A stretch of 52,621 nt of DNA, taken from positions 1-52,621 of the forward strand of contig CAYULJ010000001.1 in assembly GCA_964445715.1 (NCBI GenBank), read 5' to 3'. Each line of letters opens with the position of its first letter. Within the stretch, counting starts at the first letter, position 1. The position numbers were made by a program, and so were the translations under genes. This stretch comes from an uncultured Planctomycetia bacterium. Lineage in GTDB: Bacteria; Omnitrophota; Gorgyraeia; Gorgyraeales; Gorgyraeaceae. The notes below the pieces were generated by a model that was not told the DNA's origin, did no database searches, and was given only the letters and a program-made list of their open reading frames with translations. Below are positions 2 through 52,595 of the stretch, piece by piece.

Positions 2-545
2 ATAAAAGATGACCTGGATAGCTATAAAGATCTATATGGCTTTGTCTCTTACCTGAAGAAAGTAAACTCTCTTGATTCTGCAAAGCTCTTTAATGAGATA
101 GAAGAACTGACTTATGAGACAAAAGACCTTATCGCGGATAATGAAAATCAAAAACTCCTCACAAAATCCTTCAGACATATAAGATTCTTGGAAAATTTCT
201 TTAATCTTAAAGTTTCAAACGAAGATTTGGATTACTATCTTAAAAATCCAGAAGACTTCAAGGTAGGCTTTTTCGAGGGTTTCTTGAAGCGCAATTTGAA
301 AGAATACAAGATAGGCTCTTTCATAGACTTTAATCCTGACCTGATAGATAAATACCTGCCAGAGCTCGAATCCTTCTACAGAATAGCCCACAAAAGAGAC
401 GTGGCAATGTTCAACAACGCCATAAAAGAAATAGAAAAGCGCAAGGTCAAGACCTCTGCCCTGATAGCAGGAGGGTTCCACACCAGAGGCATAACAGAGC
501 TTTTGAAAGAAAAAGGTTATTCCTATGCAGTTGTCTCTCCATATT
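2..545 (+). other. Domain in giant ORF: C-terminal half of a Tiki/TraB/ChaN(GumN)-like fold, cut by the window edge
   Basis: AHKRDVAMF (R-D-x-x-M, nt 386-412) is followed by LIAGGFHTRG (G-x-x-H, nt 461-490). This matches the second-half signature of the Tiki/TraB/PrgY/ChaN superfamily. The first-half motifs would lie upstream of the window. Confidence 0.4.
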
Positions 546-3500
546 CAAAGACAGAGATAGATGAAGAGAATTATAGAGATCTATTGTCAGGCAAGAGAAA
601 GCCGCTGTCAGAATTGCTTACGAGCTTAAATTTTAAAAGCAAACTAAGGGGGATAATGGGCTATGCTGCAACAGATTTTATTGATAGATTTAATGTTAAT
701 GCCAACGTTGCTGAGAGATTAGGTATATTTATTGATGAAATACGTCCTATTTCGGGTAGATTCACTGCTGTTGTATCTGCATTTGGACTAGAGGTAGTCG
801 GACAAGATATAGATAGCGTAGGATTTATGTTTACTCTTGAATTCAGAGAATATCTTGAATCCGATATCGTGATCAAAAAAGATGCTGCTGGGAATATATA
901 TATTGGATATGGAAAGCAGTGTGCAAGGGTGAGAACCAGTGGCGCTCAATATGAAGTGATTAGTCATAACCTTTTTGCTAGAGTTCCAGCAGCTGAGACA
1001 ATAACGATTACAAAGAAAGATGTTACGGTAGAGACCGCTGATGTTGCCGCAGCTTCCGAAGAAGTTATCCAACCAACTGTTGCTGAGTCTGAGGATGATT
1101 TAGAAGCTGATACGAGCACAGGCGGATCGGTTATACCAGAATTAGAATACATAGAAAAAGTAGCATGGCTTGAGACACCAGTTGCATATTTAGCTGGCTT
1201 TATTTACTTATGGCTGTCTGATATAAGTTTATATGCCCTGCCATTGGTTGGTCTTGGTCTCTGGATTTCACACTTTATAGGGGCCTTTGGCTATAAGAAA
1301 TACATAGAGGGCGGTACTTATAAAGAAGCGTTTAAGGCAGGCTTGCGCGCGTTGTTTAGGATAGATGTAACAACGCTTTCGTTTTTGACTTCTGTTATTG
1401 GTGTTGGGTTTTTTATAGCTGGACCGCTTGGGTTTGTTGTTGCAAATGCTATTTTAATATTGTGGCATTTTATCGTAAATAAATTTAGAGCTAAAGACAT
1501 AAAAGAGGAAGAAGAAGGGCGGCCTAGATTTGCCAGTCTGATAAACGGCATTGCCCGCCGTGGTTGGGCCAGCCTTTCTTCTTTCTTTAAATCTTATTTT
1601 TCTAAACATGAGGCGAGAAAAAGAAGCGCTGCAAAGATAGTGCGGATCCTTATGGATACAGGCGCGTTTGATCTTGATGATCATGCAGAGGATTATTTAT
1701 TCGATGAGCTTCTTGGAAAGCCAAGCCATGAAGTCGACTTTGCAACGTTACGCAGAATACAGCTGGCCTTGGAGCAGGAAGGCATAGAGGCCCTGAAAAG
1801 AAAAGCCCAGAAGAAGGATAAGTTTGAATTCTCAGAAGACGAAGCTGCGTATGAACAGGTAAAAGATTTGGCTGCAAGGGCTTTTAAGGGCGCTCTATCA
1901 ATACCTTTATATATGCCTAAAAACTTTATCTGGCAGCCAATCGCCCCTCATGTGCAATACCGCTATTCCAGGAAGAGTCGCCAAGGTTTACTTAGCAAGG
2001 ATGATATAGCGAGGGTTATAAAAGGCACAGAAGGCCTGGAAGAGAAAACAGCGCCTTCTACAAATACCCTGGTCATAGCTTTCAGGTATTTCTGGGATCA
2101 TGCAGGAGTGATTATCTTCGAGCTCTTAAAATTTTCCTTAAAGTTCGCAATCATATCTCAGTTTACCGTATTTATAGCACCTTTTATACTTGCACTTTTG
2201 CCTGTGGGGATTGCCACATTTTCAGTTGCCGGCATGCCTATTTTTGGCATGACATTTTTCGCATGGTCAGCCGAATATATATTGGACAGGCTTTTGACAA
2301 ATACGCTGTTGAATTCCTTATCTATAGTAAAGCAGAGAAAGCAGCAGCTTGCAGAGGAAAAGCTTGCCTATAAACTTTCAGACCTTCCTAAGATAGAGGG
2401 CGTAGAGATTCCAAAGGCAGGAGATTTCAATGCATTGTCAGCGTATCTAGAGGCAGCACAGGAAACCACAACCCGTCTTTCGAAACCTGATATCGCAGCC
2501 GTAGAAGAACGATTGAGTTTTTATCCTGATTGGCAGAGATCATATCTTATATCATTACTGAATGATATAACTTCCAGCACAGAAAGAGGTGTTCCTAGGG
2601 CGAGAGAGCCTCCGACCAAGATATCTAAGAAAGAATCTTTTGTATTGTATTTACAGGCCATAGTCCTAAGTATCCCGGTCTTCGAAGGCTGGACTGTCAG
2701 GATCTTCCTAAAGAATTATAAAGGCTCACAATTAAAAGGCTGGAATAAAGCAGCACATATTGTACAGCTATCCTTATTCGCGCTTGGTTCTTCCCTGACA
2801 TTTAGCATAATAAAATCTACGCTTTCCCATATGTTTATTACAGGCGCGATAAATCAGTTTAGCCAGGGTGCATTATCTCAGATTCCGGTTGTCGCGCCCA
2901 TTGTAAACTATGTTACGAATTCAGGAGATATGTTAGTAGATAGCGCTCTTACTAACGATATTACTACTTCTGTGTACCATGCTTTTGGCGGAGACCTGCC
3001 AACGCTTAAGCACTTTATCTTAGAACCAAGGGCAGATTGGCTATATGACCAAGATGCTGGATTTATTGCAAGCTCGTTAGCCTCGGATAGCAACGCAAGA
3101 GAAGTCTTTGGATTGATAGATATGAGAGATGAAACTCTTGGCCTCCAGGTCCATGCTGAGATGATAATGAATGCTTATGAATCAGCTGAACCTGAATATC
3201 AAGGAGAGGCCGGCAAAGCTGTGCTAGAGAGCATGTTATATGAGAGTATGTTATTTGCAGAAGGCGAATTCATGTTAATAGTTGCAACAATGGACAGACT
3301 TGACCAGCTGCAGGAACAAGGCCTTATCTCAGAAGAAATCGCTTCAGAGATCATGCAGGCCATGTCGTACTATGAGACAGCCGCGAGTGTGTTTAGTGGG
3401 TTAATGGAAGATGTTTTTCAGGCTGAGCCACAACAGGAACAAGAGCCTGATCGCATACCTCTCCCTGTAGAATACTTTATTCCAAACCCGTCAGCATCAG

Positions 3501-6500
3501 ATGAATACTTTCTTGATTTGAACAATGCTTTTCTAGACAGTTATGACTTAACCGGCTACGAGCTTCATATAACATTCTCAGGAGGAGAAGGGAAAACTGT
3601 CCAGCTTTTTTATAAGGACGGTGACTGGAGAAATCTCTATTCATCTCGACAAACAATCCCAGCTAGCGGACTTATTACATTTAACCCGGAATCTGACCCT
3701 GCAGATATAAGAGGTGCGGATCTTAGCAATGCCCGCGCAGTTGGGGCAAAGATATTCGGAGGCTTGGGCGACGTTACAATAGTAGATGCAGCTTTGGTGC
3801 GTATAGGAAGTGCTGAGGTAGTAGAAGCGCCAGCACCCACGCCTACTTTGGTGCCGACAATAGAGCCCACAGAGACTCTCACTGCATTAGAAATACCGCT
3901 CTTCGAATACCAAACTCAAGACTGGATAGACAGCCAGGCAATAGATGAAGTCAGGCACAACGCCGACGGTACATTGGATTTACATGTGCATTTAGCAAGT
4001 GAGGCAAATATAAAAGAACAGGTAATAGAGTTTCTAGAGACACATCCTGAACTGAATGTAGATATTAGCGGAAAAGGCATAGATGAGTTAGCAGTGCTAG
4101 TAGCGGATGCGATAGACTCGAGCGGAAACTATCAAGATCCAGAATATCAACGTATAAGAGAATTAGTTGGCCAGAGTAAAGGCGAAGCTTTTATAGACCT
4201 CCGTTATGCAGACATCGGCTATCCAGATCATGAACCTGGGCAGACTCTCGATCTCACAAATTATAGACTCGTAGTGACAGTGGACATTCCTCAGCAATTA
4301 GTTGCTCCAGAAGGCGCTCCTAATGGCATTCAGCTCTTCTTTAAGAGCGGCCCAGAATGGTCAGCTGTATATGCCAACTGGACTAATGTCTCACAGGGAG
4401 GTCAAATCACATTAGCTGTGGATATTGGTGCAGTAACTGAGAACTATAATTGGATTTCAAGAGATCCAAATGGCGAGGTATTATTTGACCCGACTGATAT
4501 CAATGCCTTAGGCATAAAGATCGGTTCAGGAGGCATAGCCCTCTCAAACTATGAGACAGATGCATGGTTAAAGGCGACCTCAGTTGAATTGGTACCAGTA
4601 GAAGAAGCAATAGATACAATCCCATATCCACGCCCGATAACACATGGCGAATTTTCACCTGTAGACGTAGAGAGCTTTGTATCCCACAGTGGCCGTAACG
4701 GCATCTGGGGAGAAGAGACGCCCTATGGAACAGCCATGCAGCTTGAAGGTGGATATCTAGATATTGTAGGACACACAGAAGATGGGAGGCCTATAACAAG
4801 GATAGAGCAATTTCTGTTGAATGTAAAAGAAGATGGCGGCAATGAAGCTCGAGTATGGCTATTTAATGACATACGCAATCCAGATGAGATATTCATAATG
4901 AAAGATGGGGCACCTATAGCATTAAGAGGAGGAGTATATGAAGTAACCAAAGCCATTATAGACGCGCAAGAGAGAACAGAAGTCAGGGTAATACCGGTAT
5001 TATTCGACTTCCATATCTTAAATAGCATAAGAGAGGAAGGCGGGGAACTGACAGGAGAGCATCCTGAATTTTTCACAGAAGAAGGAAGAGAGGCTCTTGT
5101 AGAGATTTTTAAGCCGTGGATACAGGGATATGCTTCTCAATTTGAATTAATAGATTTATTTAATGAGCCAGAGAATGTCGCGCCAGAGCCAGATGCTGGA
5201 GTATTGTATAACCCGCATGTATTAACATTCTTGCAATCATTCAGCGATTTAGTTCATGAATACCAAGGCAATGTAACAGTAGGTATAAATAAACCGGAGA
5301 ATGTGTATCGCTATCAAGATATTATACGGTATGACTTGGGAGATGAGTTTTCAGTGCATTTCTATAATGTCTCACCCGGAGACTTGCCATATGCAGGTGA
5401 ACTTGGCGTAGGAACTTCCCCAGTAAGGATTACTGAGATAGGTGCAGATTCTAGGGAAGAGGTAATAGCTTTCATACAAGAGGCATGGGAGAAAGGCTAC
5501 ACTGGAATATCATTCTGGCCACAGGACGGGTTTACATCTGAAGGCCTCCAGGAGGCACTGGATAGTCTTAGGGAAGAATCAGCTAGCTTCAAGGTACAGC
5601 CAAGGCCTGTCGTCTTTGCAATTCCTGCACTAGCTGCACTGGGAACAAGTGTAGCCGGCTTTATGGATCTTATAGCTGATATAGTGCCATCTCTGGATGA
5701 TTTTGATGTTTGGGATGTCGTTAAGGTGCTGGCGGTTGTTACTGTTGGTGGTATTGTCTTGAGCACTGCCGGGCCTGTTGGCTTGTTAGCGGTTGGTTTA
5801 GTCGTTTTTAGTGTTAGTGCCTGTACCACCCCGCCAACGCCTACTCCTGCACCAGCTCCGGATACAAGAACAGAGGTTTTTCTGGAAGCCATGGATAGAG
5901 CAATTCTGGAACTAAGACAGGAAGGCGCGCCTTATATTGAAGAGCTCAGAGAGATGAGGCGCATGTTCGACACAGGCAGGGCTGGTTTTGTATCTATGCC
6001 TGGATTGTGGATGGGTTTGGGAATCCCTTCGCCTGGAGAAGAAGGGGAGATACTTTTCAGTGTTAATTATGAACTTATGGCTCCTTTGTTAGAAAGGGCT
6101 GCGTATGACAATAGATATAATATTTTCCTGAAAGCGATGTTGATTAAAGAGGCAGCTTCTTTGAGTTTTATCCAGGATCATCCTCAAGAGATACAAGACA
6201 TATTTCTGTATAGCGAAGAGTATTACAGATTAAGATCTGATCCAGACAATGATCTCAATACGCCTGAATTAGTACAGGCAGCGCAGAATTATTTCAACAG
6301 TATAGTTACCAGGGAGGCATTTGGCTGGAAGTCCCATATGGAATATTTGGCTGATAATGACATGACAATAGAATCGCTTGTAGCGATGAGAGATGAAGCA
6401 GAGGCGCAGGGATTGTCGCAACTGTCCAGTCTTTTTCACAGTCACGCGATTTACACTTTAGTTGGCGCTCCTGATGGCAGGGTGGACTGGATAAATTTAA

Positions 6501-9500
6501 AACTCGTCCTCTCCAGCGCAATGCAGGTATTAGATGAGAATATCTATAGAGATATAATGACCATAGAGGAGAACAAAGGGACAGTGCGTTATGATGATTC
6601 TATAAATGACTGGGAACTGATTGGCGGCTTTGTCGATGAAAACGATAGATTTCATTATCCGGATAACTTTTTAGAATTCCTCAGGGAGGATAATATAGAC
6701 TCAGGCGCACAAGACCCTGCTACTGTGCCTGAACAGCCGGCAGTTACAGAAGAGGCGGCTGCGCAATTGTTGAGTGCGCTTCTTGAGGAAATCCATAGCG
6801 ATATGCTCGGAGGGAGAGATGCTGCATTATCTGGGTTACCTTATTCTGAAGAAGCTTATAATAACCTAAAAGATATATTGACTAGCGGAAGAGTTACGGT
6901 AGAAGACAGCACAGGGTTCTTTACGATTTTAGTCCCACAGGCTGATGGCCGCACAATAGATCGCGTAATCATAAGCAGCTCAATATTAAGTCCCGAATAC
7001 TATGCGATATTGAAAGATGCCTTGAGGCATGAACTCGTGCATTTTGCTGACAACACATTAGAGAGAAAGATGTTGTTGGCAGAGGAGTTTGGCGAGACTG
7101 TCCAGCTAGAGATCCTGAATTTGTTTTCCAGCGATGATTTTAAGCAAAACGGCTTAAATCTTTCTCAATACCTGGAACATAAACTCAGAGAAGATCCAGG
7201 GTTTGTAGAATTGATCAAACGGTTAACAGCTTTATATATACAGGATGAATACGTGGCATTTGATAGAGTACCTGGCAGTATACCTTTCGAGGTATACGCC
7301 AACTTGCTTGATCTTGACGGAGAAGGCAGGGCTACAGGGATCAGAGATGAGACGGGATTTAGATTATGGTTGTTTGAGGGCTATTTAAGAAGGCAGAATC
7401 CGCTTCTCTATATCCTGGCAGCAGAAGTAGAACGGATCGAAGGCCGCGGGATTTATCATCCAGTATATAATTGGGATAACGGGACAGCTATGCAGTATTA
7501 CCGCGTGCCTATATCCATAACAGAGACTGATGTGCAGTTTTTCGATCTTTCCTATCCGATGCTTATTCCCAGGGCATTTGCCTATGATGTAAATGGAAAT
7601 CCCAGAGCAGTGCCATCTCCTGCAGATGATATTTCTTTATACGTTACGCTGGAAGATTACAGAAGAGATTACCTCCCCTACATTATGGATCCTGGCTATT
7701 ATAGGGCAGAGACAACAGGAGGAGGCAAGATGTTTAAGATAATGCCACCTACTATTGCGCAGTATGATGCTGTCCAGGACCAGATAATAGAAGGCTTTCC
7801 AGAGGCCACCGAAGCCGACATCCGCGCCTCTATCCGCACCCAACTTCAGCCTATAGTCACAAACATCGATGACGTAGACACATATACCAGGGAATACTGG
7901 ATGGTATGGAACTCCTTTGCTCACCCATGGGTAAAGGAAGAGTTATCCAGCTTACTACTTGACTCTGGTAATAGAGGTAACCATGTCCTTGAGATAGTAG
8001 AAGCAATAGGCTTTGACCCAGAAGTAGACCAGACTGCAAAAGTCATCTGGGCTGATGATCTAAAAGATATATTCACTAATACCATCTCTGCGGATTATGT
8101 AAGGGGCACGTGGGCATTGTGGGGACTTGTACAGATAACAGGAGATGAGGCTTCAGACGCTGTAAGCGTAGAAGGCATATCCTCAGCTGTAAGAATAAAA
8201 TTAAACGAGTTGCTCGATGATCCTGCAACTGACTGGACCAGTTACCAGGCAATAATCCCTGCCTTAGACGGAGGAGAGTGGCCGGCTGATGTAAGGCTTG
8301 ACTCATTTGAGGTATTCGAAGGAGTTGTAAATAATCCAGGCGTATCTGATACTGAAAAGATAGAAATAGGAAATACAGTCCTTCGCGCGTTAGAAGCTAT
8401 CCACGCAGCAGGCAGCTACGGTATGTATGAACAATACATAATAGTAGCAGGAGCAAAGGTCCTTGCAGGAATAGGAAGGGATGAGACAATACCGGATTCA
8501 GATAAAGAAGCATTCTTTGATAGATTAAGCGCCTTACCTCTTCGTGGATTTACTGATCCTGAAAACAATGACGAGATATTCATACAAGAAGTGGATGAGG
8601 ACTTCTTGGTCATAAATCAATATTATCATATACCTGATGAGACCCTTGAAGCTTTAATGAGCCTGGACGCAGAAGCGCTGATTAATGGAGATGCCTTCAG
8701 GTCAGAAGATGACCCATTCGTAAGAGAATCTATCTATGGTAGTGAATGGGATAGGACAGTCGGCGACAGCGAGAAGCTTGCCCTATCACAGGCTGCGAGG
8801 ATTTTATTAGAAGGTTATAATCTTGAAAACTACGACACCTTGCCTCCAGAAGACCAGATCGCAATTAGAGCAGCCTTAGAGATAGCAGAAGCTGCATGCC
8901 ATGACGCAACACTCTCTATAGATGAAAAGAAGACCTGGGCAACATACCTTATAGATATATACACGAACACCTCTATACCTTATACAGTAAGGGCAAGAGC
9001 AAGCTGGGCTCCTTATGAGGTATCAAGAGACCCGCGTATAGACATTGCATCCAAGATAGATGAAATAGCCACACCTCTGATAGCATTTTTAAATCTAAAT
9101 ATAGATAACCTCACAAACTACGAGGCTGTCGCAGCATTAGACTGGGATACATACCCAGCCGGCGAGCAATTTGATTCCTTACGCATATTAAAGGAGATAG
9201 CAAGGTCCCCTGACTTTGAAACTCTTCCTGAATCAAACGTAACGCCTATAGTTGATGCTACAGTATCGGTTTTAAACAACATTAATCTGGATTCTCCTGA
9301 CGCGCACGATCTAGAGGCAATAGCGCACGGGACAGAGACATTAAACATAATCTTCTCGACTACAAACGCAATATCAGGAACCAGCATGCAAGCCGCATAT
9401 GATCTCTTGCTCAGCCTCTCGGTCAATGAGAATATCTACCACGAGATATATGTCAAGGATGTTGATGAAGACTCAAATACCGTAGAGATCTACTATAACA

Positions 9501-12500
9501 TAGCTGATGAGGTGAACAAGGCACTGGGGGTGGTGATGCAAACCCAACTCTCTCAAGGCCTCTCTGAAGCCGACATCCGCGCCTCTATCCGCACCCAACT
9601 TCAGCCTATAGTCACAAACATCGATGACGTAGACACATATACCAGGGAATACTGGATGGTATGGAACTCCTTTGCTCACCCATGGGTAAAGGAAGAGTTA
9701 TCCAGCTTACTACTTGACTCTGGTAATAGAGGTAACCATGTCCTTGAGATAGTAGAAGCAATAGGCTTTGACCCAGAAGTAGACCAGACTGCAAAAGTCA
9801 TCTGGGCTGATGATCTAAAAGATATATTCACTAATACCATCTCTGCGGATTATGTAAGGGGCACGTGGGCATTGTGGGGACTTGTACAGATAACAGGAGA
9901 TGAGGCTTCAGACGCTGTAAGCGTAGAAGGCATATCCTCAGCTGTAAGAATAAAATTAAACGAGTTGCTCGATGATCCTGCAACTGACTGGACCAGTTAC
10001 CAGGCAATAATCCCTGCCTTAGACGGAGGAGAGTGGCCGGCTGATGTAAGGCTTGACTCATTTGAGGTATTCGAAGGAGTTGTAAATAATCCAGGCGTAT
10101 CTGATACTGAAAAGATAGAAATAGGAAATACAGTCCTTCGCGCGTTAGAAGCTATCCACGCAGCAGGCAGCTACGGTATGTATGAACAATACATAATAGT
10201 AGCAGGAGCAAAGGTCCTTGCAGGAATAGGAAGGGATGAGACAATACCGGATTCAGATAAAGAAGCATTCTTTGATAGATTAAGCGCCTTACCTCTTCGT
10301 GGATTTACTGATCCTGAAAACAATGACGAGATATTCATACAAGAAGTGGATGAGGACTTCTTGGTCATAAATCAATATTATCATATACCTGATGAGACCC
10401 TTGAAGCTTTAATGAGCCTGGACGCAGAAGCGCTGATTAATGGAGATGCCTTCAGGTCAGAAGATGACCCATTCGTAAGAGAATCTATCTATGGTAGTGA
10501 ATGGGATAGGACAGTCGGCGACAGCGAGAAGCTTGCCCTATCACAGGCTGCGAGGATTTTATTAGAAGGTTATAATCTTGAAAACTACGACACCTTGCCT
10601 CCAGAAGACCAGATCGCAATTAGAGCAGCCTTAGAGATAGCAGAAGCTGCATGCCATGACGCAACACTCTCTATAGATGAAAAGAAGACCTGGGCAACAT
10701 ACCTTATAGATATATACACGAACACCTCTATACCTTATACAGTAAGGGCAAGAGCAAGCTGGGCTCCTTATGAGGTATCAAGAGACCCGCGTATAGACAT
10801 TGCATCCAAGATAGATGAAATAGCCACACCTCTGATAGCATTTTTAAATCTAAATATAGATAACCTCACAAACTACGAGGCTGTCGCAGCATTAGACTGG
10901 GATACATACCCAGCCGGCGAGCAATTTGATTCCTTACGCATATTAAAGGAGATAGCAAGGTCCCCTGACTTTGAAACTCTTCCTGAATCAAACGTAACGC
11001 CTATAGTTGATGCTACAGTATCGGTTTTAAACAACATTAATCTGGATTCTCCTGACGCGCACGATCTAGAGGCAATAGCGCACGGGACAGAGACATTAAA
11101 CATAATCTTCTCGACTACAAACGCAATATCAGGAACCAGCATGCAAGCCGCATATGATCTCTTGCTCAGCCTCTCGGTCAATGAGAATATCTACCACGAG
11201 ATATATGTCAAGGATGTTGATGAAGACTCAAATACCGTAGAGATCTACTATAACATAGCTGATGAGGTGAACAAGGCACTGGGGGTGGTGATGCAGGCTA
11301 TGGGAGCCAGTGGCATAGCTTTTGATTTAGAACCAGTTCGGGTGAGCGATTCAGAAGCAGCACAAGAGCAACCCGCAGCGCCGCAGCCAGCAGCAGCACT
11401 CCAGCAGCAACAAGATACTATAACACTGCTTCCTTATGAACCCGTTACTGATATTGGCCGAGACGGACAAGAATATATACTTAATTCAAGGTTACTATGG
11501 CAGGGAATATATGAATATGGCTATCTTGCTCACCAGGAGATAGTTGATGCAGACTGGAATTATCGTTTCGCAGAGTTAAATGGACAGCCTGTTCTCGCGC
11601 GCTGGGGTAGGCAGGATTATAATGCTGGAGCATTAGAGGTATTTAGCTGGACATATGCAGATGCTACTTTTGCCACAATCAGTATTGAAGAATTCAATAA
11701 TGATATAATCGTCCTTGATAATCAGGTGTCATTGTCCATGGATCAGCAGACTCTGTTCCTGGATACCTTGGGAGTGGGCGTAGCAGGCATCGGAGGCGGA
11801 GATATAGTCGATCTGCCATTGGAACCAGGCCCTGAGGGATTTGTTGTAGAGGGCATGCTCTATCGTCAGACCCTTGGTGGCCAGGTAGAATATGTGGATG
11901 CTGAGTTTAGATATTGGTTTGCCCAGCGCACAAGCGACAACGCTTATTTTCTCATAAGACAAGGCAGGTATTATTCGGAGCATAAAGATAAAATCGAGAT
12001 GTTTGAGATCTCGCCTGATCTTATTTCAGGAGAGACTCCGAGTTTCAACGATATGACCAGAGATGTGTTCAGGGACATTGTATCACAAGAACCAAGCGTA
12101 CCTACTACTTATGATGTTGAAGAGACAGTCTTGGTCGGCCTGGCTGAAATGCCTGCAGAAGCCCAGGTATATCCTGACGCACAAACATTCGAGTACGAAG
12201 GCCTTATAGAAGGCGTAATAAGCGGCAACAAGAAAGAGATCATGAGAGGGGATGCATTGCTGCAATATCTGGAAGGTCTGGCAATAAGTTATGAGTTGCC
12301 GTTAGAGATAAAACCATATGAGAACTATCCGGTTTTCACGAACTTCTACGAAGATGAGTCTGGGAACGCGCTTGGATATGATGTTTCAGTCTTTTTCTCT
12401 GAACTGGCGAGAGAAGGACATGAATATGACCCAGAAGCGTGGCGCCCTGCTGGCAGCACCCGGCCTCCTGATTTCACAGTTGTGCGCACTGACTTTATTG

Positions 12501-15500
12501 AAGAGCGCACAGATGAGATGAACAACGTAATATCGACTATCCAGGCCGAGATTCTTGCAGAAGCGACCAGGGATGAGTTGGCGGGTAAGACATATCCTGA
12601 GCAGCATACGACATACCAGATCCAATGGAATGATGGCCAGATCATACTTTTTGATCTTAGTTATTGGGTTGCAAACCAAACTCCCTATGCGCAGGAAGTG
12701 GCAATAATAAATCCAGTCACAGCTGAGGTTATAAAGGTAGGCCCGATCTATGGCGAGAGATTGAATTTCGCAGGTAATGTATATACCCTGCCAGAGGGTA
12801 GTTCATATGCGGATGGCGAGAATGAAGCTGGCCAGTACTTTACATGGAGGATATCAGAAGCAAGTGCAGATTCTATAACAGCAGAACTTGTGCGTGAATT
12901 TGAAGTGGCTTTATCTATAGTCCCGCAGGAAGCTCTTGATATTGCAAGCGGTTTAGGAGTTACGGTTACCAAGGCGCACACCAAGGAATACGGCACCTTG
13001 ATCCTTACTCCCGGCACAGACGGCATTTTAGGGAATGGTGATGATGTCTCTATCCCGGACTGGAAGAGAGAAGATTTCTTTATATATGGCGAGCCCGAAG
13101 AGCTTGGAAGCGGCCTGATAAAGATCGCGGCTATACCAGGAGATGATTCTATAGAGCCATACGTTGTGTATCAGGAAAGAACGGTTATAAATGGTATTGA
13201 ATATTTCACTACATATAGAGAGATGCCGGATGGGACGGGTTGGCTTGTTACGCCAGGCAGGTGGCCAGAGGCGACTATGAAGGTCGTCTTGCCGGATGGA
13301 ATGGACATCGCTCATCCAGATGTCCTCAGTGAACTGAAGAAACCAGAAAATGTAGTGGAGTATTATGGGCTTTCAAAACCAATCGGCGAAGGTGGCCTTA
13401 TGGAGATAGAGATCATAACAGGCCCGAATGACCCGAATAGATTCGAGGGTGAGAAGCGCACTATCTACCGCGATGCAGAGATGAATACATATACGCTGGC
13501 AGAGGATGGAATCGGTTGGAATGTTACACTGCGTGGTGCATTGGACGTGTCTATGTATATAGTTTTGGATGAGGGTAAAGACATCTCTGATATCACTCCA
13601 GTAGCAGGCCAGACTATTATGGATGCATTACAAGAGAATGCAGTGGAGAGACATTTGTATAATTATGACGCAGGGTATGTAGTAGATGGCAGATTACAAG
13701 TAATCGGAATTACAAAAGAAAAAAGAGACGTTCCTGCAGATCCATGGGTGGAAGATGAAGTATTTGTAATGTATAGAGACAAAGAAGATGATACTACTTA
13801 TAGACAGGAAGAAGATGGCCCTGGTTGGTATGTTACACCTAAGGGAACAGATGATGCCTCGATGTATATTGTTTTGGAAGAAGGGAAAGATATTTCTGGT
13901 ATCGCTCCAGTAGCAGGCCAGACCATTCCGGAAGCATTAGAAGAGAGTGCTATAGAGATAGACACATATAATTATGGAGCACTTGTAGCAGGAGAGAGGT
14001 TGCGAGAAATTAATGTTATAGAAAAAGAACGCAGCGCCCTTGGCGATAGCTGGCAGCGAGAGGAAAGTTTCACTATATATAGAGATGCAGATGGCGTTAC
14101 TTACAGAGAGGCAGAAGACGGTATTGGCTGGTATGTTACGCCTCGTGGCGGATTAGACGCCTTGATGTATATTGTCTTGGCTGGAGGCCAGAGCATCGTT
14201 GATATTGTCCCAGCAGCAGATCAGACTGTTCTTCTAGCGCTGGAAGAGAATGTTATAGAAAGACATTTGTATAATTATGACGGAGGATATGTTGCAGGCG
14301 GCAAGCTGCAGGTAATCGAGGTTACAATAGAAAAACTAGGTATTCCTGATGAAGCATTTACTATATATAGAGATGAGGATCGTAATACCTATAGAGAGGC
14401 AGAAGACGGCACTGGATGGTATCGCACTCCGACTAACGGACTGGTACATCAAGCAGACGCAAAGATAACCTTACCTGATGGAGTAGATATTAACGATGAA
14501 GGTGCGTTGGAAGAATTAAGGAAAGAGAGCAATCTAATAGTCAAGTATGGTTCTTGGGTGAGTTTATCCGATGAATTAGCTGTGCAGAGAAACACTTGGG
14601 GGCCTAGCGCGCCAGCAGGAAAGGCGCCTGGTGAGATTGAAGCGCTTTATAGGCTTAGCGTAATAGGCAAGTACATAACTGTAAAAAGCCCTGAGCAACA
14701 GTCGCATCAGATCAGCTCACCATATTATGGATTATGGGAGATAGTTTTATCAGGCGATGACCCATTCGAATATACCTCATATTTTATCCCGGCTTCGAAT
14801 GTGGATATAGAAGCGATAACTGATTTTAAGGCGTTGTTTATGGCCATGGATGATTACGCCGAGAAGCGCATGGAATGGATAAATGGCGAAATTACAGACG
14901 ATGAGATTCTCGCTGCGTTTGACTTGTTTAAAGAGACATTGCTGGATATAGGAGGGATTACATTCCCGGCAGATTTTGACAATGTAGCTGATGTTGCTGA
15001 AGACAGCAGATTAGTGCCGCGGGTAGGCAAAAAGGAAATTACAAGTATCACAGAAGGCGTTATCCCCTCCAGGGAAGAGCCAGAACCAGAACCTCAGGAA
15101 GTTATTGAACCTATTACAATTGACGAGGCCATCGGAGTAGCAAGGCAGACTCTGGGTATCACGCTCGCTCTTGACCAGGCAAAGGAAGAAGATGGATGGC
15201 TTGTATGGGATTTTCCCAGGACTTTTAGAAAGGATATTGAACTTAGGCTTAGCCTTAACTCCTCTGATGATGGGATTATTTATGGTCAATTAATTACATG
15301 GGATTATTTGCATCAAAACAGTAAAATGTTGGTGGCCCAGATTCGGCCGGATGGGGTTATGTATATTGATGCTGGAATATCGTGGATGCCGGCATATACA
15401 TTAGGCATTATGACAGCCCTTGATGTCCAGCAGGATGATATTTCAGATACGGGTTGGGATATCAGGTATGACGCTTTTTCTGACGAGCTTAGATGGCTTC

Positions 15501-18500
15501 ATGGGATAGGTGAAGTTGTGTCTGTGACTCAGGATGTTTTCGACGGGCCTTATGAGCTCCATTTAACTACGCGCTGGTTCAAAGAAGCTACTATTACGAT
15601 GGACAATGACCCTCGCATAGCAGGTTTTATACCTATAATATATGCGCTCCGGGACCATGGCGTAGAAGAAGCTACCCTGGCTCTAGAGGAAGGGGAAGGC
15701 AGTATTAAAGTAGATCAAGGTGGGACCTTGACCATACAAGGCGGCAATGTCATTAAAATTGCGCCGACTGAGAACGAAGGCGAGTATCTAGCTACTGTAA
15801 ACGATAGAGAGTATAAGGTTATAGTAGAAGGCGACGGCACAATCACAATCGAGGGAGAAGCGGCTATAGAAGAAGGCGCGTTTATGCCAGACTCTTTCGG
15901 AGTAGGTCTTGGCGCAGGCCTGAATTTTACCCTGCCGGCCTTTTTAGGATTTATTGAGTTGCTGCAGGATGTATTGCAGCCAGAAGAGCCGGAATATATA
16001 CCGCTGACAGGTTTTATAGAGAATCCGTCAGCCTCGGATGAATTCTTTCTTGATCTGCGCTTTCTGGACCTGGGCATTCCACAAAATGATGACGGAAGCT
16101 ATGATTTAAGTCAATATGATCTTGTTATAACATTCGAAGGGGGGTCGGGCAGGAAGGTGCAGTTTTTCTATAAGGATATTGACTGGGGGAATCTTTATTC
16201 ATCCAGAAAACAAATTAGAAGCGGAGAACCTCTTATATTTAATACAGAATCTGATTTTACAGAGGTAAGAGGAGCGGATCTCACGCATGTAGCTGCAGTT
16301 GGCGCAAAGCTATTCGGTAATCTAGGCCTGAGGGGTGTGACTATTGAGAATGCCGGGTTAATGCTTAGGAGGATCGATGATGAGGTTCCGGTAGAAGATG
16401 TGTCAGAACCGGATATAAATATAGGAGATTTTATTAGTGAGCATCCATTGTATACAGCAGGCAGTGCTGCTCTGGGAGTCCTTGCTGGCATTGGCGCAGG
16501 GATCGGTGCCGCAGCCCTGTTTACTTCAGCGCCTATATGGGTGCCTGTTGCTGCAGGAATACTTGTGGGCGCAGGAGTTATTGCCGGCAGTTATCTTATA
16601 GGTCAGGCGATATTCAAAGCAGAAGACCTGGAACCAGAGGGGGCTACATTCAAAGTACAACCAAGACTTGTCATTGCGAGGAGCGTAAGCGATGAAGCAA
16701 TCTCTTCTTCTGTCCTGGCAATGTCAGGAGCAGGGATTTTTGCAGGAGCAGGTTTTACTGAAACGCTCGCAGGCGCATATGATATAGTGAGCGGCTATAT
16801 CTTCTCCAAGCCTCAAGAGGAACCAGAGCCTCCTACAGGCACTCATGATATCCCGTTGGATGGTTGGCGTATTGGAAATCCTGGCTTTGGGACAGCTATT
16901 ACTAATGTAGCGCGTGAAGGCGATACACTCCGTCTGACAGTGGCGAGGTCTTCTGATAAGAAAGGTGAGATCTGGATACCGGCTGATATATTATGGGAGG
17001 CCATGGGAATTGAAGGGCCAGTGGATCTAAGTGGGATAGAAGTGAATATGGATGTTCAATCTCAAGGCTCAGGACAGTATGGGCTGCAGGTAGCGTTTCA
17101 CAATGGAACCCTTGGATTTAAAGCGCATAACTATTTTGGGTGGCAGGTTACAGGAGGCAATCAGGAAAGCGTATGGAGAGGATACGAAGATCTCCGCGAT
17201 TGGGTGGATCTTTCTACCTATGATCCTGACAATGTAACATATTTATCCATCAAAGTCGATAACACCAAGGGCTTTACAGGAGACATTGTGCTGAGTAATC
17301 TTCAGATTACATTCCCGGAGGAAGGGATTGCGCTGCCAGAGCTGGAACCGCGTCTCACTGACACAGAGGTTATAGATCCGTTTGAAGGAGAACTCTCTCA
17401 AAATATAGGTGTAAATTTAGGCAATACAGGTGGCCACGATATAGGTATTTGGTCCGGGACACATGAGGGCTTCTCTTCGACAACTGGTGAGGCTAGATTG
17501 CGTAATTTGGTCGCAGATCTTCCGGAGGGCACTGCGGTGCGTGTGTTCTTAAGTCTGGATGGCAGGGCGCGATTTGTAAACGCAGACGGACAATTGACAG
17601 ATGTTGCCCGAGCTGACTTAGATACATTAATACAAGTCTTTCGGGACAATAATTTAAAATTGATCCCTGTTTTGATGAGTTTTGATGTTGCAAATAGTAG
17701 CGGAGTAGCAGACCATCCTGAATGGTTTGAAGATCAAAAAGAGCGCCAAAATATGATAGCTAATTATGCTAAGATGGTAGAATACTTGGCTAATCTGGAT
17801 CCTCAGCATGAAGTAATCGCGGCATGGGAGCTTATTAACGAGCCTGAAGGCATGAAGGTGAATCCGCAAGACATAGCTGTTACGCTTATTGAGCTTACCA
17901 ATATGATCCGCGAGATCGATCCTGAGATACCTATAACAGTAGGTATGCGCAATGTAGCTACGTTATTGCAGGAAGGCTCGGTGCTTACTGAAACTGTATT
18001 AACTGTGTCTGACTTCCTGCAGGTGCATCATTACGAAAATCCGAGTGAACTGCGATCCTATGATTTAGGAGAAGAAATTGGTTTCCCTGAGAGAGATACA
18101 TGGATAGAACGATTGACTGCTTTGGCAGAGGCGCATTCAACATTGCGGATTTATGTCGGGGAGTTGGATCCCTGGATCTCTCCAGAAGAGGTAGCCCATG
18201 TTCTGGAGATGGCAGGAGTGGATGGCGTGGCTGTCTGGGGACTGCATAGCTTCGCGGAGGGAGACGGACGCTATTCGCAGCGTCTTGCTGAGCGCGGAGG
18301 CTTTATTGGTTGGCAACAAGAGGTTCTGCAAGGGCTGTCCGAAGCCGAACAAGTTATTCCAGTTGAAGAAGAGATCCTTTCTCCTCCTATTAGTGTACTA
18401 CCCGAGCTTAAGATAGACAGTAATTTCCGGCTTATGAAAGGAGAAGAAATAGGCATTGTCTCTTTATCCAGCGAAGAGGACTATTTTATAACAGATGAAT

Positions 18501-21500
18501 ACGGGAATATATACTCACCCAGAGGGAATTACATCGATGTTATAAGTCCACGTGACGAGCGAATTTCTCTGACCTATATTTTCGAAGATGCAATAGATGT
18601 CGAGGGACTTGCCCTTTCAGAGCTCGGAGATATTATAAGCGATAACATAGGATACTTTATTTACGCCTATGATAGATCAGCTGTGCTTCCCGAGGGAACT
18701 GTCGTAGTTACAAGGATAGAGTATGATGTCGAGGGCGACCAGGTTGGTGAATCTACATGGTATCTTTTCAGCAAAGATTTATTAGGTCAGTTTGAACGAA
18801 GAGCGGAAGAATTCTTTGGTCAGGATTTAGACATTAATAATCCTGAGCACGAAAACATGCTCAATGCATTTACGGCATTCGCTATCAATGTAGGCGATGA
18901 GCGTTTGAGCACCGCCTTGACAAGTGCCCGAATTCTAAGGCCGTTCTTTAACGAAATCTGGAGCGCTAGCTTAGAAGGCTTTGATTTTGGTGATGAAGAT
19001 AGACTTTCCACGCTGTTTTACTGGACAACAGAATTGGCCTTTGACAAGGATGTTGCGCGTGAGCCAGAGGAAATCGAGGCGATCCTTGTCCGCGCTAGAG
19101 AGCTAAGGCCTATTATTGTCGAGCGTCTATCAGGGTTATGTAATGAGTATGGCCTTGATAAAGCAATAGACGCGATCGAACAGCTTGATACATCAACGCA
19201 TGCTGGCAAATATGCTTTTTCATTGATCATGTACCACGCTTCTAATGAGACCGAGATCAACACAATACTCACTAGCAACATAGAAAGGCTGCTTGCCCTA
19301 AAGTCTATAGTAAGTCCAGAAGACTATGAGACCATAGAAGCGCAGGAGCTTGACAGAATCACGCAGGAAAATATAGATGGGCTTACGCAGGAGGTAGGCA
19401 GGTTTAGTGGACCGCTTAGTGTGACTGAGACATTCGAAGGATTTGTCTATGGAGAAGTCAATAATCTCCAAAAGGCTGTTAGTGAAGGGGGTCTTACTGA
19501 TCCTGTTACGATAGAAACGTGGCAGAAAGTTATCTACGCATACATTCAGGCATATACTGTTGTCTCTAGAAGTAAATCTATGGGGCAGGAATTTACAGGG
19601 AGCCCTGAAAGACTTATAAGCGGAGTCCTTTCTATCCTTGAGAATACACAGGTATCTGGCGAACCACATAATCTCATGACCCTTACGAATTTAATCTTTG
19701 AAGGCAGAGACATCGAAGGCGTATCTTTTGAAGATCTGATAGAGCTAGATGCAGATAATCCTGTTTGGATATATGAGTTTGATGAGCCTATGGACTTAAG
19801 CGGAGCAGGTTTAGTCCTGCCGATGAGGATTGAAAATCAGGGCTCAGCCTATGCACGCATAACTGTATTTGACGAGACAGGAGGCGTTGCCTACGCAGAT
19901 GTGTTCCAGATCCTTCCCGCAGGTTCTAAACTGCCTGAAACTGCAGAAGAGGTGTATTTCAGGTTTTTTGCACCTAGCGCAAGCGGGTTAAATGCATTGG
20001 CAGCTCGCATACAGATAGAGGTATTGGACGGGTATGCGGATGTGATTGATGAACAGACTAACTTTGCGCAATTAGAGTATATCCAGGGGTGGATTTCGAA
20101 TAATTCTGACATAACCCTTGCAACCGTAGTTCCATTAGGACAGATCCGGCCAACAATAGAAGTCGCAGGAGAGGGTTTCAGGAGAGACCTTGACGGAGAT
20201 GGCGCCTTAGAAGACTGGTTTATCATAGGAGGCAACTGGAGGCCGCTTGGCTATGGGAATATTTCCGAAGTCGTAGATTATGAGGATATTATTGATGATG
20301 CAATAGCTGAAAAGGCGCAGGACGGCTACAGCGTACTCAGGGTAGGATTATTAGATGACGGCCGGGCTTTTTTTGACGGCGACAGGGACAAGATCATAGA
20401 GAGCGCTCTCTCGCTTTTAAGGCTGGCTAACAAGAACGGCGTAATGATAGAGTTTACACTCGCAGATTTTCTTATGTTCGCAGAGCATCCAGAGGCTATA
20501 AGCAATGCTGAAGTAAGTGACTTTTTAGAGGAATTACTTGAGAGGATAAATAAAGACCCAGAGGCAAAAGCAGCCTTGTTTGGATTTGACCTCTTAAATG
20601 AACCAGAGTGGCTTATAGATGATGAGGATTCAATAATAGTAAATGATGAAGACGGAATAATAACACAGGAAGAAATCGAAGTCTATGTAACGAATAACTC
20701 AGCTGTTATTAGAAGCTTAATACCCGAGGCATTCGTAACTGTAGGCATATCAGCGGATAAAGCGGATCTCTTGAATAATGTGCAGAATCTCCTTGATTAT
20801 AACGCAGTGCAATACTACGCCTATATGGGTGATTTCTCCGGACTTATAGGTGCCCTTCCGCAGGATAAACCATGGATCTTAGAAGAGTATCCTACAAGAG
20901 ATGAAGGTCGTCCTATTGATCCTTCATTCTATCTTGATATGGTCAGAGACACTAGTGGTGCAGGCGCATTTGTATGGCAATTGGAGCCGGCACGCAGGCC
21001 TTTAACCCCGGATACCAGAGTAATGATACAGAACTTCCGTCTCCGTGAAGTTGACCGGGTTGAAGGAGTGATACAGGATGAATTTAATATTTCTCTGAAT
21101 AGAGATCTACAGATCAATGATACCCCAGAGCTATTGACTCATGACCCAGGCTACGGCCGATTATTCTATAGGCTGAATAAAGAAGGAGAACTAGTTAATC
21201 TGATAGATAGGCTTCTTAATATCACAGGCATTGCGCCGAGGCAGGCTGATTTAACAGAGCCTTTAGAGATATACTTGATAGACGAATGGGGCAAAGAGCA
21301 TCTTATAGGAAAAGCAGAAGCTAACCCTGACGGCACTTTCTCTCTCGAAGATACGCAAACATGGCTTGCAGATTCAAGGATCCAGAATATCCAGATGATA
21401 GAGCTCAGGTTTACCTATAAATCTGTAATGCCATCAGCCTGGTGGGCTTATGGGTCTATCTTTACAGCTTTCATTATAAATCTCATCGGTACCTTTCTAA

Positions 21501-24500
21501 GGGTTTTATCCCAGTATCTAAAGTATCTTGAAAGAACTAAAGATTATCCTGGTAAGCCAAAGACGCTAAGAGCCAGGATATCGAAGTTATTAAAGGCCCT
21601 TATTTTTAAAGTAGCAAAAAAGCCTGATAAGCCAAAACCTGCAATAGATCTACCATTGCCAGATGAGGTTCAACCAGTTACTCTAAAGCCGAAAGACATA
21701 GATGACAATGTGCTTATCGATCGTGTGCGCGAGGCAGCCAAGGCTATCTGGGACTGGGTAGATGAGATGCATGTGGACTTCCGTGCGATAGGACATCAGC
21801 AGGAGGATGAAAATAAGTTCTTGCCATGGATGCGTAGCCCGGAGATCTGGCAGACTGCTGACCACAAGATCGCGCCTCGCTATTCGCTTCGTCCTGCCCG
21901 CAATGTAGTCCTGCTCGCCTTGATAGCAAGTCTATTGGCATTAAATGACTATTCTGGCGCATTGACCTGGATCTTTCCAATACTTGTACTTTTAACAGCA
22001 TCAGGTTGGTTCAACTGGCGTAAATTCAGGGACTGGACAGTGTATGGAGGCCTGACATTTACCGTATTACATCAACTCTTGCCTTTATTCGGCGTAGGCC
22101 ATGAGATGATAAGCCTGGCTTTTACAGTAGCTGCGCTTTTCTTATATGCGGCATCACCATTTTTTAGATACATAGATACTATCCGAAGGCCTCAGGTGTA
22201 TGTCGAAAACCAGCGCGATAGGCTCGAGACGCTCCACAGCATCCTGCATATTATACAGAATGGAAGCGAGGAACTTGAACAATTAGCTGTATTAATACCT
22301 GATGATGTCAAGCCTAGTGGTTTGGAAGGAAAGATGTTAGCAATAGTGAGAGGAGAGGTTCCTGTTAGACTGGATACGTTGCCTGCGGGTATCGAATTTC
22401 CTGAGAATATAATTTATAAGGGTAGATATCTTATTCTTGAAGGCGTGATGACCCGCGAGCAATACAAGATCTTAAAATCATACTCTTCTGACGATATGTC
22501 TTATCAGAAGGCAGTTGACAGGTTACTTGCATTCTCCAATGCCAAGAGATATATGAAGGCCAGGGCGTATTGGTATGGAGAAGGAAGAGGAGGAAGTAGA
22601 TGGAAATGCTGGAAATTCACGGGTAAACAGGCAAAACAACACCTTGCAGCTGTTGCAAAAAATCCTGACCTTTTACTTCCCTATACCAATGACCTCAGGC
22701 GATGGAGACGCTCCCATGCGTTTGGCAGGCAAGAGGTATTTGCCATACTTAGAGTACTGCCGTCTGAAATAGATACTGATGCTGGTCGTCGTCTTCTTCA
22801 CGCATCAGGTGTCTGGCATGATGCCGACAGGGGCCAACTCATGACATTTGGTCCAATGACAGAAGCTCAGCGTGATGACTTATTAGCTCTTTCAGCCGAT
22901 GCAGATTACCAGGATGCGATTCGAGAGATTTTTGATACGTTGCAGAGACAAGACCGAGGTCCAGAGGGACATTATCTGCTCGGCGGTGGCATAGAACAGG
23001 CAGAGCCATTCTCTGCTACCCTTGATCGAGCTATTACAGAACTTGAAGGCGCTGGAGATGCAGAGGGTCTGCTTGATCGCCGTGTTGGAGAAGTCAGCAT
23101 AACTAGACCATTATTAACGTCTTTAGGCTGGACTATTCCTGTAATAGTTGTAGGAATAGTAGGTATGATCTTCGCCCCAGCCATATTAGGAGCAAGTACA
23201 GTTATTATTATACCGGCAGCTACACTGCTTGTATCAATAATGGTATTTACAAGGACGCTCAGTCGCGAGATAGAAAAACAAATGCTCATCAGGCCTGCAT
23301 TGGATATGCGCAAGATCCTGGTGGAGAACTTCAGGATCATCTATAACAATGAGACTGGCTCAGGGTTGGTGGCCTTTGATGCCTGGCGTACGCTTATGGA
23401 AATCGCAGCAGCCATGAACCGCAGTAAGAAAGATATTAGAGACAAGGCAGGTCCTGCTGGCTATAAAGAAAAAGATGTGAAAAAGATAGTGCAGGAGAGC
23501 CTTAATGATATAAGGATAGCAATGACAAGCGTGAGAGACTCTGCGATTGCGCGCTGGTTCATTGATTCCTTTCATCTATCAAGGTACCAGGGCTTTATTG
23601 GCCGCACACGCGCTATACTGCGCAATGCGTTCTGGCTTTTTGTGTTTGGCTCAGCTGTTTATGTGACAGGGTTGCTGGGTATTTACGCAATAACAGAACT
23701 CTCTGCATTCTTGAATCTTGGTCACTTGCTGCCATTTGAGGAGATATTTGCCCGTCCTTTTGCAGTATTAGAGATAGCAAAGCTTTTAATACAAAATGTC
23801 CCTCATGCCATAGTTGATAGAAATCTGGGGATCATTTTTAATGACATGGCGCCGTGGCTTGTGTTTGCCTTTAGTCAGACATTTCTGGGCATGGTGATAT
23901 TTGGCGCCCTTACCCTTACCATGGGGAAATTTACATTCTACTTTCTTGGAAGCTTTGCAAAGCTATATCCTGATGAGGAAAATGTAACAGAAGGGCATTT
24001 TGTGAGGCTTGGCGCTATGGCATTGATAGCAGCAGGGGTCTTAATAATCCCAGGAGCCGGATGGATCTTGCTTCTAACAAAGACATTTGCCGGATTTGCG
24101 TTGCTTGCTTCTTTATACATGTTCCCTATACTTTTAAAAGCGCGTAGCAGATTTAAAGGCATTGGCCAGGATGATAAGCTTCAGAGTACAAAGGCTTCAT
24201 TTGAAGACTTTGTGAGGACAGTGTTGCAGCGCTATGATTCAAAAGAGATAGATGCTATTCTTAAAACCGGGGATCTGAGCCACTCTGAGCGCAGGCGCTA
24301 TGAAAGAGCATTAGGTAAAGGTGCAGTTCCATCAGGAGTAGAGTATAGAATGGATATCCCATTAAGGGATGCGATTAATGAGGCATTTGGACAATTGACT
24401 GCAGAACAAATCCTTACACGTATGTCAGGAGCTGGTTTTAGAGAACTTAAAGACTATTTGCGAAAACAAGGTACTGAGATAGATAATGAAGCAGAGCTAT

Positions 24501-52105: not shown

Positions 52106-52139
52106 CTTTACACTTCAACAATGTTAAAGTGTATACTTA
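52103..52139 (+). repeat. Palindromic element E1 (degraded copy), starts at the stop codon of the giant ORF
   Basis: The sequence is TAACTTTACAC-TTCAACAATGTTAAA-GTGTATACTTA. The 11-nt arms pair at 9 of 11 positions around a 15-nt loop. It shares about 29 of 34 positions with E2. An alternative inner fold is TACACTT/AAGTGTA (52109-52133). Confidence 0.7.
52107..52137 (+). promoter_or_regulatory. Weak sigma-70-like promoter candidate embedded in E1
   Basis: TTTACA (52107-52112) and TATACT (52132-52137) are separated by 19 nt. The same geometry exists in E2 (TTTACA 52561-52566, TAAAGT 52586-52591). The promoter consensus of the host is unknown. Confidence 0.2.
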
Positions 52140-52169: not shown

Positions 52170-52559
52170 GTGAATAAGATCAAATATGGCGTCAAAAATG
52201 TTGCTCAGGTTGTATCGGGTTTTGGCGAAGTTTACCCTTGCGTATGCACAGATGATGGGATCTTGTTTGCGGATAAGATAGATGCACTGAATAAAAAAGA
52301 GAGGGCGAGGCATATCTATGACGTTATCTTTATGCTTTCTAACAAATATCCTATAGATAGAGTTTTTTTGAAACGTCTTGGCATAAAGAAAGAGCCTTTC
52401 GAGGTTATTTCTGATAGGATAAAAAGCTTTTCAAAAAAGGATTTGAGAAAACAGGACGAGACATTAAGGCCTTTTCTCTTTGATGAGAGCGAAGCGGATC
52501 TAGTAGCAAATGCTGATGAAGTAATACCGAAATTATTGGAAAGATATATGGAGTCTTAA
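52170..52559 (+). CDS. Small ORF (129 aa), possible C-terminal remnant of an AbiEii/DUF1814-like nucleotidyltransferase toxin
   Basis: GTG at 52170 is preceded by AAGGA (52159-52163) with a 6-nt spacer; TAA at 52557-52559. KIDALNKKERARHIYDVIFML resembles the conserved C-terminal K..AL..R...RD.YD motif of AbiEii-type proteins. The N-terminal nucleotidyltransferase half is absent. The family call is from motif memory only. Confidence 0.5.
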   Translation: MNKIKYGVKNVAQVVSGFGEVYPCVCTDDGILFADKIDALNKKERARHIYDVIFMLSNKYPIDRVFLKRLGIKKEPFEVISDRIKSFSKKDLRKQDETLRPFLFDESEADLVANADEVIPKLLERYMES

Positions 52560-52595
52560 CTTTACACGTTAACATTGTTAAAGTGTAAAGTTAAG
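52555..52595 (+). repeat. Palindromic element E2 (perfect 13-bp arms), starts at the stop codon of the 129-aa ORF
   Basis: CTTAACTTTACAC (52555-52567) and GTGTAAAGTTAAG (52583-52595) are exact reverse complements around the 15-nt loop GTTAACATTGTTAAA. E2 lies 454 nt downstream of E1 in the same orientation. Confidence 0.8.

Follow-up and report, generated by a model that had tools for sequence, protein, structure and literature searches.

How does a gene of more than 50 kb come to carry, inside one unbroken reading frame, two copies of a 1.7-kb segment that do not differ by a single base, and can these copies be taken at face value? The question is raised by a stretch of DNA of 52,621 nucleotides (nt) from an uncultured Planctomycetia bacterium, assigned by GTDB to the Omnitrophota (Gorgyraeia; Gorgyraeales; Gorgyraeaceae). 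The stretch, positions 1 to 52,621 of the forward strand of contig CAYULJ010000001.1 (GenBank assembly GCA_964445715.1), was analyzed at its full length and is called the window here. It holds a giant open reading frame (ORF) on the forward strand (2..52105), which consists of 17,367 open codons plus a stop and has no 5' limit within the window. Two head-to-tail copies of one segment are found in this ORF at 7811..9540 and 9566..11295, on the same strand and 25 nt apart. This arrangement is an in-frame tandem duplication within one giant ORF. The observations described below make it probable that a cassette of two modules, A and B, has really been duplicated in frame and head to tail (A-B to A-B-A-B), and that at least two copies are present.

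The two copies match at 1,730 of 1,730 nt, with 0 mismatches. At an offset of 1,755 nt, the exact repeat is the single run of identity of at least 20 nt in the whole window, which contains no N bases. An exact repeat of this length cannot be the product of chance. At either edge the identity falls from 100% to background within one base, as is expected of a single event. The repeat period of 1,755 nt (1,730 + 25) equals 3 x 585 codons, and the giant reading frame is unbroken across both copies. When the amino acids (aa) are numbered from nt 188, the start of the listed ORF, aa 2542-3118 of copy 1 return verbatim as aa 3127-3703 of copy 2. The protein repeat reaches 577 aa, since the boundary divides a codon that encodes Gln in each copy (CAA / CAG). 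The repeat region takes up 3,485 of the 51,918 nt of the coding sequence (CDS), or 6.7%. A first-pass annotation of this DNA had reported the identity of the two tracts, the frame-preserving offset of 585 codons with its 577-aa repeat, and the uniqueness of the 25 nt between the copies. All three hold on recomputation, and the 25 nt have no second occurrence in the window.

Each 585-aa unit is itself a pair of modules, each about 292 aa long (A with 293 and B with 292 aa), which are 28% identical in a chunked self-BLAST and also in a MAFFT alignment. Over 262 aligned codons their identity is 30.5%, and their third-codon identity is 40%. By self-BLAST and alignment, module A occupies 7811..8689 (aa 2542-2834) and, in its second copy, 9566-10444. 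Module B, delimited by alignment and by a hidden Markov model (HMM) and counted together with the 25-nt joint, occupies 8690..9565 (aa 2835-3126), its second copy extending from 10445 to about 11314. All four lie on the forward strand, and both module types end in a common C-terminal motif, EI[FY][IV]x[ED]VDED...YYxIxDE...AL. An HMM of A and B has exactly four matches in the whole protein of 17,305 aa, at aa 2542-2834, 2840-3126, 3127-3419 and 3425-3709, and no further A- or B-like module occurs elsewhere in it. The order in the gene is A-B-A-B, so that a dissimilar pair is repeated in series with nucleotide identity. The exact repeat ends 5 aa past the conserved ...AL of module B and resumes with the residue that opens module A, which places both breakpoints in the poorly conserved linker that follows the C-terminal motif of B and precedes A. 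The earlier proposal of a modular duplication is borne out in a sharper form, as the unit is exactly two anciently diverged modules with breakpoints in the linker. The third-codon identity of 40%, the four HMM matches and the exact repeat together point to a two-step history, in which an ancient duplication gave rise to A and B, and the A-B pair would later have been duplicated as a whole. The A-B-A-B region (window 7501-12000) has a GC skew of 0.04-0.06, compared with 0.15-0.19 in the flanks, and its AT skew rises to 0.12-0.14. The amino-acid composition of the cassette is likewise distinct, being rich in D, A, N and T and poor in G, K and R.

As judged by its sequence, the cassette is an orphan that has no detectable homolog in the collections searched. 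The unit gave zero matches in a word-seeded search of 5.8 billion proteins, in a full phmmer search of 1.84 billion cluster representatives and in a sequence search of the PDB. Zero matches were also obtained with 500 aa of each flank, concatenated, against the 5.8 billion proteins, with a wobble-tolerant DNA pattern of the unit end against genome, metagenome and viral contig collections, with tblastn against phage and plasmid collections, and with Pfam at E <= 10 on A, B and both flanks. AlphaFold predicts the unit with low confidence (pLDDT 51.8) as mostly helical, apart from a small beta element where the conserved C-terminal motif lies. The model of module B, for which A was the sole aligned row, is of low confidence as well (pLDDT 47.8) and is also mostly helical with the same small beta element. 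The top Foldseek matches are all ARM/HEAT proteins, with TM-scores of 0.11-0.26 for a query model of pLDDT 51.8, and this resemblance of the predicted fold can only hint at a helical scaffold.

The joint between the copies, 25 nt at 9541..9565 on the forward strand, has the sequence AACCCAACTCTCTCAAGGCCTCTCT and is translated in frame as TQLSQGLS. In context, unit end, joint and unit start read GGTGATGCA-AACCCAACTCTCTCAAGGCCTCTCT-GAAGCCGAC; the sequence GGTGATGCAAACCCAACTCTCTCAAGGCCTCTCTGAAGCCGAC would be diagnostic of the junction, and the predicted tryptic peptide ALGVVMQTQLSQGLSEADIR is specific to the fusion of B, joint and A. The joint is CT-rich and of low complexity (CTCTCTCA...CCTCTCT). 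Neither k-mer nor local-alignment searches found a template for it on either strand of the window, where the longest match of the joint elsewhere is an 11-mer, which, given how long the window is, we judge to be at chance level. Its identity to the 25 nt after copy 2 (11296-11320) is 8/25, which is also the chance level. The first-pass annotation had noticed an 8-mer, ACCCAACT, both in the junction and near the start of the unit, and took it as a hint of microhomology-mediated template switching. The junction site (9542-9549) is correct, but the start site is at 7838-7845 and not at 7839-7846, and there is a third site at 9593-9600. The hint itself is not sustained. In local alignment the 8-mer has p = 0.39 for the unit as a whole and p = 0.08 for the first 100 nt of the unit, it is expected 0.86 times per window, and the bases at the breakpoints (..GATGCA/GGCTAT.. 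and ..GCCACC/GAAGCC.., the slash marking the break) have nothing in common. A clean joint of an intragenic tandem duplication would consist of unit end and unit start only, or would show microhomology; the joint found here does neither. In the simplest reading, the 25 nt came into being with the duplication, which in so large a gene could persist only if the frame was kept.

Several points weigh against a real duplication. It was read from the assembled contig only. The joint contains 25 nt without an identifiable template, which is unusual for bacterial duplications, as a clean tandem duplication should carry no foreign bases. Duplicates of intermediate age are missing from the gene. The collections searched contain no relative of the cassette or its flanks that could act as an independent witness of one, two or more copies, and what can be said of module function depends on the two low-confidence models. 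An assembly artefact or a wrong copy number could take either of two forms. One copy could have been doubled, by the joining of strain variants or by a small-k join over the CT-rich joint, or three or more copies could have been reduced to two by a minimal traversal of a loop in the assembly graph. A perfect repeat of 1,730 nt exceeds short reads and typical inserts, so that a short-read assembler is unable to count its copies, and the mis-assembly of identical tandem repeats in giant genes has been documented (bioRxiv 10.1101/2025.09.30.679566). A graph node visited twice would give perfect identity, the joint is of low complexity, and its 25 untemplated bases would be strange in a biological duplication. 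Nevertheless, an artefact is unlikely, since assembler error gives no reason why the frame, the exact two-module period and the linker breakpoints should all have been kept. Their retention is the mark of a mutation filtered by selection, not of an error of the assembler; by our own estimate, random breakpoints would fall at these boundaries and in frame in well under 1/100 of cases (about 0.1 x 0.1 x 1/3). Furthermore, the joint is just 25 nt long, and with a k of more than 26 (27 or above) it can be assembled only from real reads that physically hold unit end, joint and unit start. We therefore infer that, under such an assembly, at least some members of the population carry the tandem. The artefact explanation would largely fall if long reads were used for the assembly.

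The copies may be perfectly identical because they are recent, because gene conversion has kept them so, or because of the way in which an assembler writes a repeat. The first-pass view that zero divergence means a very recent event, if not an assembly artefact, was overstated, as a graph node traversed twice, multi-mapping polishing or gene conversion would also yield identity. Zero divergence says little about age because the copies are identical by construction if one graph node was visited twice. Gene conversion is the basis of another explanation, in which an old and clean 1,755-nt duplication of 7786-9540 was homogenized in its interior, and the joint is the decayed 5' edge left beyond the conversion tracts. 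The identical tract and these 25 nt do add up exactly to the period. The joint is also identical in register to the 25 nt before copy 1 (7786-7810) at 12/25 positions, a match equaled at only 0.9% of the in-phase positions of the ORF (empirical p ~0.009, a value obtained post hoc for one of the two comparisons made). However, the identity steps from 48% to 100% at a single base, with no graded erosion, the 3' edge is undecayed (0 mismatches in the last 25 nt), and in a by-eye reading of the translated sequence 0/8 aligned aa are identical between the joint and 7786-7810. With a boundary that is razor sharp and one-sided, the decayed-edge model was rejected as the main explanation and is kept as a minor and improbable rival. 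A mobile or programmed element, such as an insertion sequence, a miniature inverted-repeat transposable element, an intein, or the template and variable repeats of a diversity-generating retroelement, is hardly credible in place of a plain duplication. The identity of the copies is the only point in its favor. No inverted repeats were found in 7600-11500, and, the giant frame aside, there is no ORF of at least 150 aa on either strand of the repeat region. The region has no Pfam match even at E <= 10, no Rfam family and no match in the phage and plasmid collections. The copies also lack A-specific mismatches, and their length is more than 10 times that of retroelement repeats. The negative results for inverted repeats, ORFs, Rfam and phage and plasmid collections effectively exclude the readings as a mobile element, a retroelement repeat or an RNA.

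By combining these observations, the origin of a real A-B-A-B duplication can be described in some detail. A single illegitimate, homology-independent joining event would have created the arrangement together with its novel 25-nt joint, without any gradual build-up. The event would have survived because the frame was kept and the module boundaries were respected, and it would have lengthened the protein by 585 aa that are mostly helical and probably act as a scaffold or spacer. The two perfect 1.7-kb direct repeats would then be a substrate for RecA-type unequal exchange, so that the copy number would be expected to vary in the population, and the two copies seen would be the minimum. In bacteria, tandem duplications are formed by illegitimate recombination and are then subject to RecA-dependent gain and loss, and their copy number is unstable once they have formed; bacterial tandem duplication is reportedly the subject of work by Roth, Andersson and colleagues. 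The duplication described here resembles this generic process in being a head-to-tail direct repeat with sharp ends. The joints of bacterial duplications typically form at short repeats or microhomology without filler, whereas the joint found here shows no microhomology and preserves the frame with 25 bases that are unexplained. The duplication is a known and ordinary kind of mutation in a poorly understood class of genes, and not a new mechanism. A more far-reaching proposal would be that the duplication is real and variable in copy number between cells, that a gene of the Omnitrophota type is growing and tuning the length of one of its long segments free of transmembrane (TM) helices by copying entire orphan helical cassettes at the borders of modules, and that the joint is the footprint of an unusual, filler-adding joining mechanism in these bacteria. 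This proposal is on the whole doubtful.

At least five older internal duplications are found in the same gene, all on the forward strand. Four are pairs: aa 1069-1204 and 5255-5392; aa 5782-5949 and 6715-6877; aa 12783-12943 and 14644-14808 (38534-39016 and 44117-44611); and aa 16239-16444 and 16618-16851. The fifth consists of three tandem units of about 101-103 aa at nt 13486-14284, with a nucleotide identity of 70-73%. In the older pairs that were measured, the third-codon identity is 30-53%. Because there are at least five such older duplications, duplication is the habitual mode of growth of this gene, with the A-B event as the only young one. The earlier suggestion that modular expansion is ongoing goes too far, as the A-B pair is the only young duplicate and the others have the low third-codon identity just given. 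The tandem units of about 101-103 aa belong to a wider array at 13448-14422 (about aa 4316-4790), with at least three units of about 45% protein identity; this array and the perfect duplication share one TM-free segment. The pairs aa 12783-12943/14644-14808 and aa 1069-1204/5255-5392 have a protein identity of 57-61% over their aligned codons and lie beside predicted TM helices or include them, which suggests that larger blocks with TM clusters were also duplicated in the past.

The listed ORF, 188-52105, encodes 17,305 aa, and since the same frame is already open from base 2, the giant gene begins beyond the window and is truncated on its 5' side. As called by hydropathy, the protein has 26 hydrophobic, TM-like 19-mers, which are clustered. 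The duplication is placed in the TM-free stretch between the hydrophobic clusters at aa 1808-1879 and 5427-5466. The protein is probably of the giant membrane-anchored kind known from Omnitrophota, with the cassette inside a long segment predicted to be free of TM helices. At a Pfam threshold of E <= 0.01, the domains found on the forward strand are a weak match to HD (about 28148-28267), a CofD-like domain (34709-35296), HEAT repeats (HEAT_2, about 39446-39664, E = 3.6e-32), a low-molecular-weight (LMW) phosphatase-like domain (LMWPc, 41378-41749) and a phosphoglucose-isomerase-like (PGI-like) domain (48596-49282). The CofD-, LMWPc- and PGI-like domains and the weak HD match are islands that lie thousands of residues apart in sequence that cannot be annotated. 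The first 10,000 aa have no match in NCBIfam, and no marker gene is found in the window. An antisense ORF on the reverse strand (39034-39534, 166 aa, TTG start) lies inside the HEAT region; it is the only other ORF of at least 150 aa in the window and is probably spurious.

The relatives found for the giant protein are only two, a fragment from a JGI metagenome and a protein of a Candidatus Omnitrophota metagenome-assembled genome (MAG), at 33-39% identity. Besides the N-terminal segment, the only part with detectable relatives is the CofD-like block with about 1,600 aa around it. The sole protein relative of the CofD-like region is a 1,178-aa fragment from JGI metagenome 3300042261 (38% identity), and the sole genome relative is locus L001 of MAG nW3bin14, with 39% identity in its best segment. 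At this locus, an ORF of 4,036 aa (ORF 1) aligns to aa 10197-11784 of the giant protein with 33% identity over 1,863 columns. The first ~140-157 aa numbered from nt 188 are homologous to an internal segment near the N terminus of two adjacent large ORFs of the same locus, aa 3-139 to aa 385-520 of ORF 1 and aa 1-157 to aa 391-546 of ORF 2. The alignment with aa 385-520 of ORF 1 suggests that about 400 aa are absent upstream of the window. This N-terminal stretch (window 188-600) appears to be a recurring domain of such long proteins, without a Pfam match.

Very long proteins of Omnitrophota, of at least 10,000 aa and with multiple TM segments, have been described (West-Roberts et al. 2023, bioRxiv 10.1101/2023.11.21.568195; Nielsen & Lui 2026, bioRxiv 10.64898/2026.06.07.730766). 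The giant protein resembles them, its membership resting on one relative at 33-39% identity over about 1,600 aa. With 17,367 open codons in one ORF it exceeds 10,000 aa, and it shares with them scattered hydrophobic TM-like clusters, HEAT repeats and isolated enzyme-like domains. In long Omnitrophota genes, internal repeats are the rule and nearly all are ancient, and strict identical nucleotide tandems occur in 17% of these genes and never make up more than 10% of the CDS (bioRxiv 10.64898/2026.06.07.730766). The share of 6.7% found here is below that ceiling. Unlike these proteins, the giant protein contains a duplicated cassette that has no homolog in any of them. Giant proteins of the Archaeovorin type, encoded by genes of more than 90 kb, carry glycosyl transferase, methyltransferase, glycosyl hydrolase, peptidase, NUDIX and often SecA_DEAD domains (bioRxiv 10.1101/2023.11.21.568195). 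HEAT repeats are a feature common to both, but the gene described here, at about 52 kb, is under the 90-kb cut-off for a 'giant gene', and the Archaeovorin set of domains is not found in it by Pfam at E <= 0.01.

With respect to the behavior of the repeat, the giant RTX adhesins offer a comparison. Region II of the Marinomonas primoryensis adhesin MpAFP/MpIBP consists of about 120 identical repeats of 104 aa (PMC4083281). In other RTX adhesins, pairs of dissimilar extender domains are repeated in series, and such a pair has been lost in one Bordetella parapertussis strain; their copy number differs among strains, and short-read assemblies render such identical tandem repeats of giant genes wrongly (bioRxiv 10.1101/2025.09.30.679566). 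Nucleotide-identical, in-frame tandem repeats within a giant gene and a dissimilar pair repeated in series are the features shared with the A-B-A-B region. The differences are considerable. The units here are of about 292 aa and are predicted, with low confidence, to be mostly helical, whereas those of the adhesins are immunoglobulin-like (Ig-like) beta-sandwiches of about 100 aa. There are two copies of the pair here with a 25-nt unique joint between them, no Pfam match to Big or HemolysinCabind, and no RTX or type I secretion features, and, unlike the secreted adhesins, the giant protein looks anchored by many TM segments. The closest analogues are the long Omnitrophota proteins by type of gene, and the extender repeats of RTX adhesins by behavior of the repeat.

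If the duplication of the A-B cassette is real, it provides a dated snapshot of how a gene of more than 50 kb grows by the in-frame copying of module pairs at their linkers. A perfect 3.5-kb tandem that makes up 6.7% of the CDS would then be among the rare young events, compared with the almost entirely ancient repeats of the survey (bioRxiv 10.64898/2026.06.07.730766). The region would also be a convenient marker of population heterogeneity and a possible site of variable copy number. Duplication of this kind is an ordinary way for such giant genes to grow, and its confirmation and copy number depend on sequencing reads. In practice, the region should be flagged, as its copy number, and hence the length of the protein, cannot be trusted without long reads.

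A separate observation concerns the 3' end of the giant ORF. A palindromic element, TAACTTTACAC...GTGTAAAGTTA, is present in two copies that are 86% identical, at 52103-52139 and 52557-52593, and has no match among viral contigs. Both copies lack a T-tract and are thus not classical intrinsic terminators. Each copy starts exactly at a TAA stop codon, the first at that of the giant ORF and the second at that of a 129-aa ORF (52170-52559). Copy 2 forms a strong predicted hairpin (-19.6 kcal/mol, z = -6.9), and that of copy 1 is weaker (-6.9 kcal/mol).

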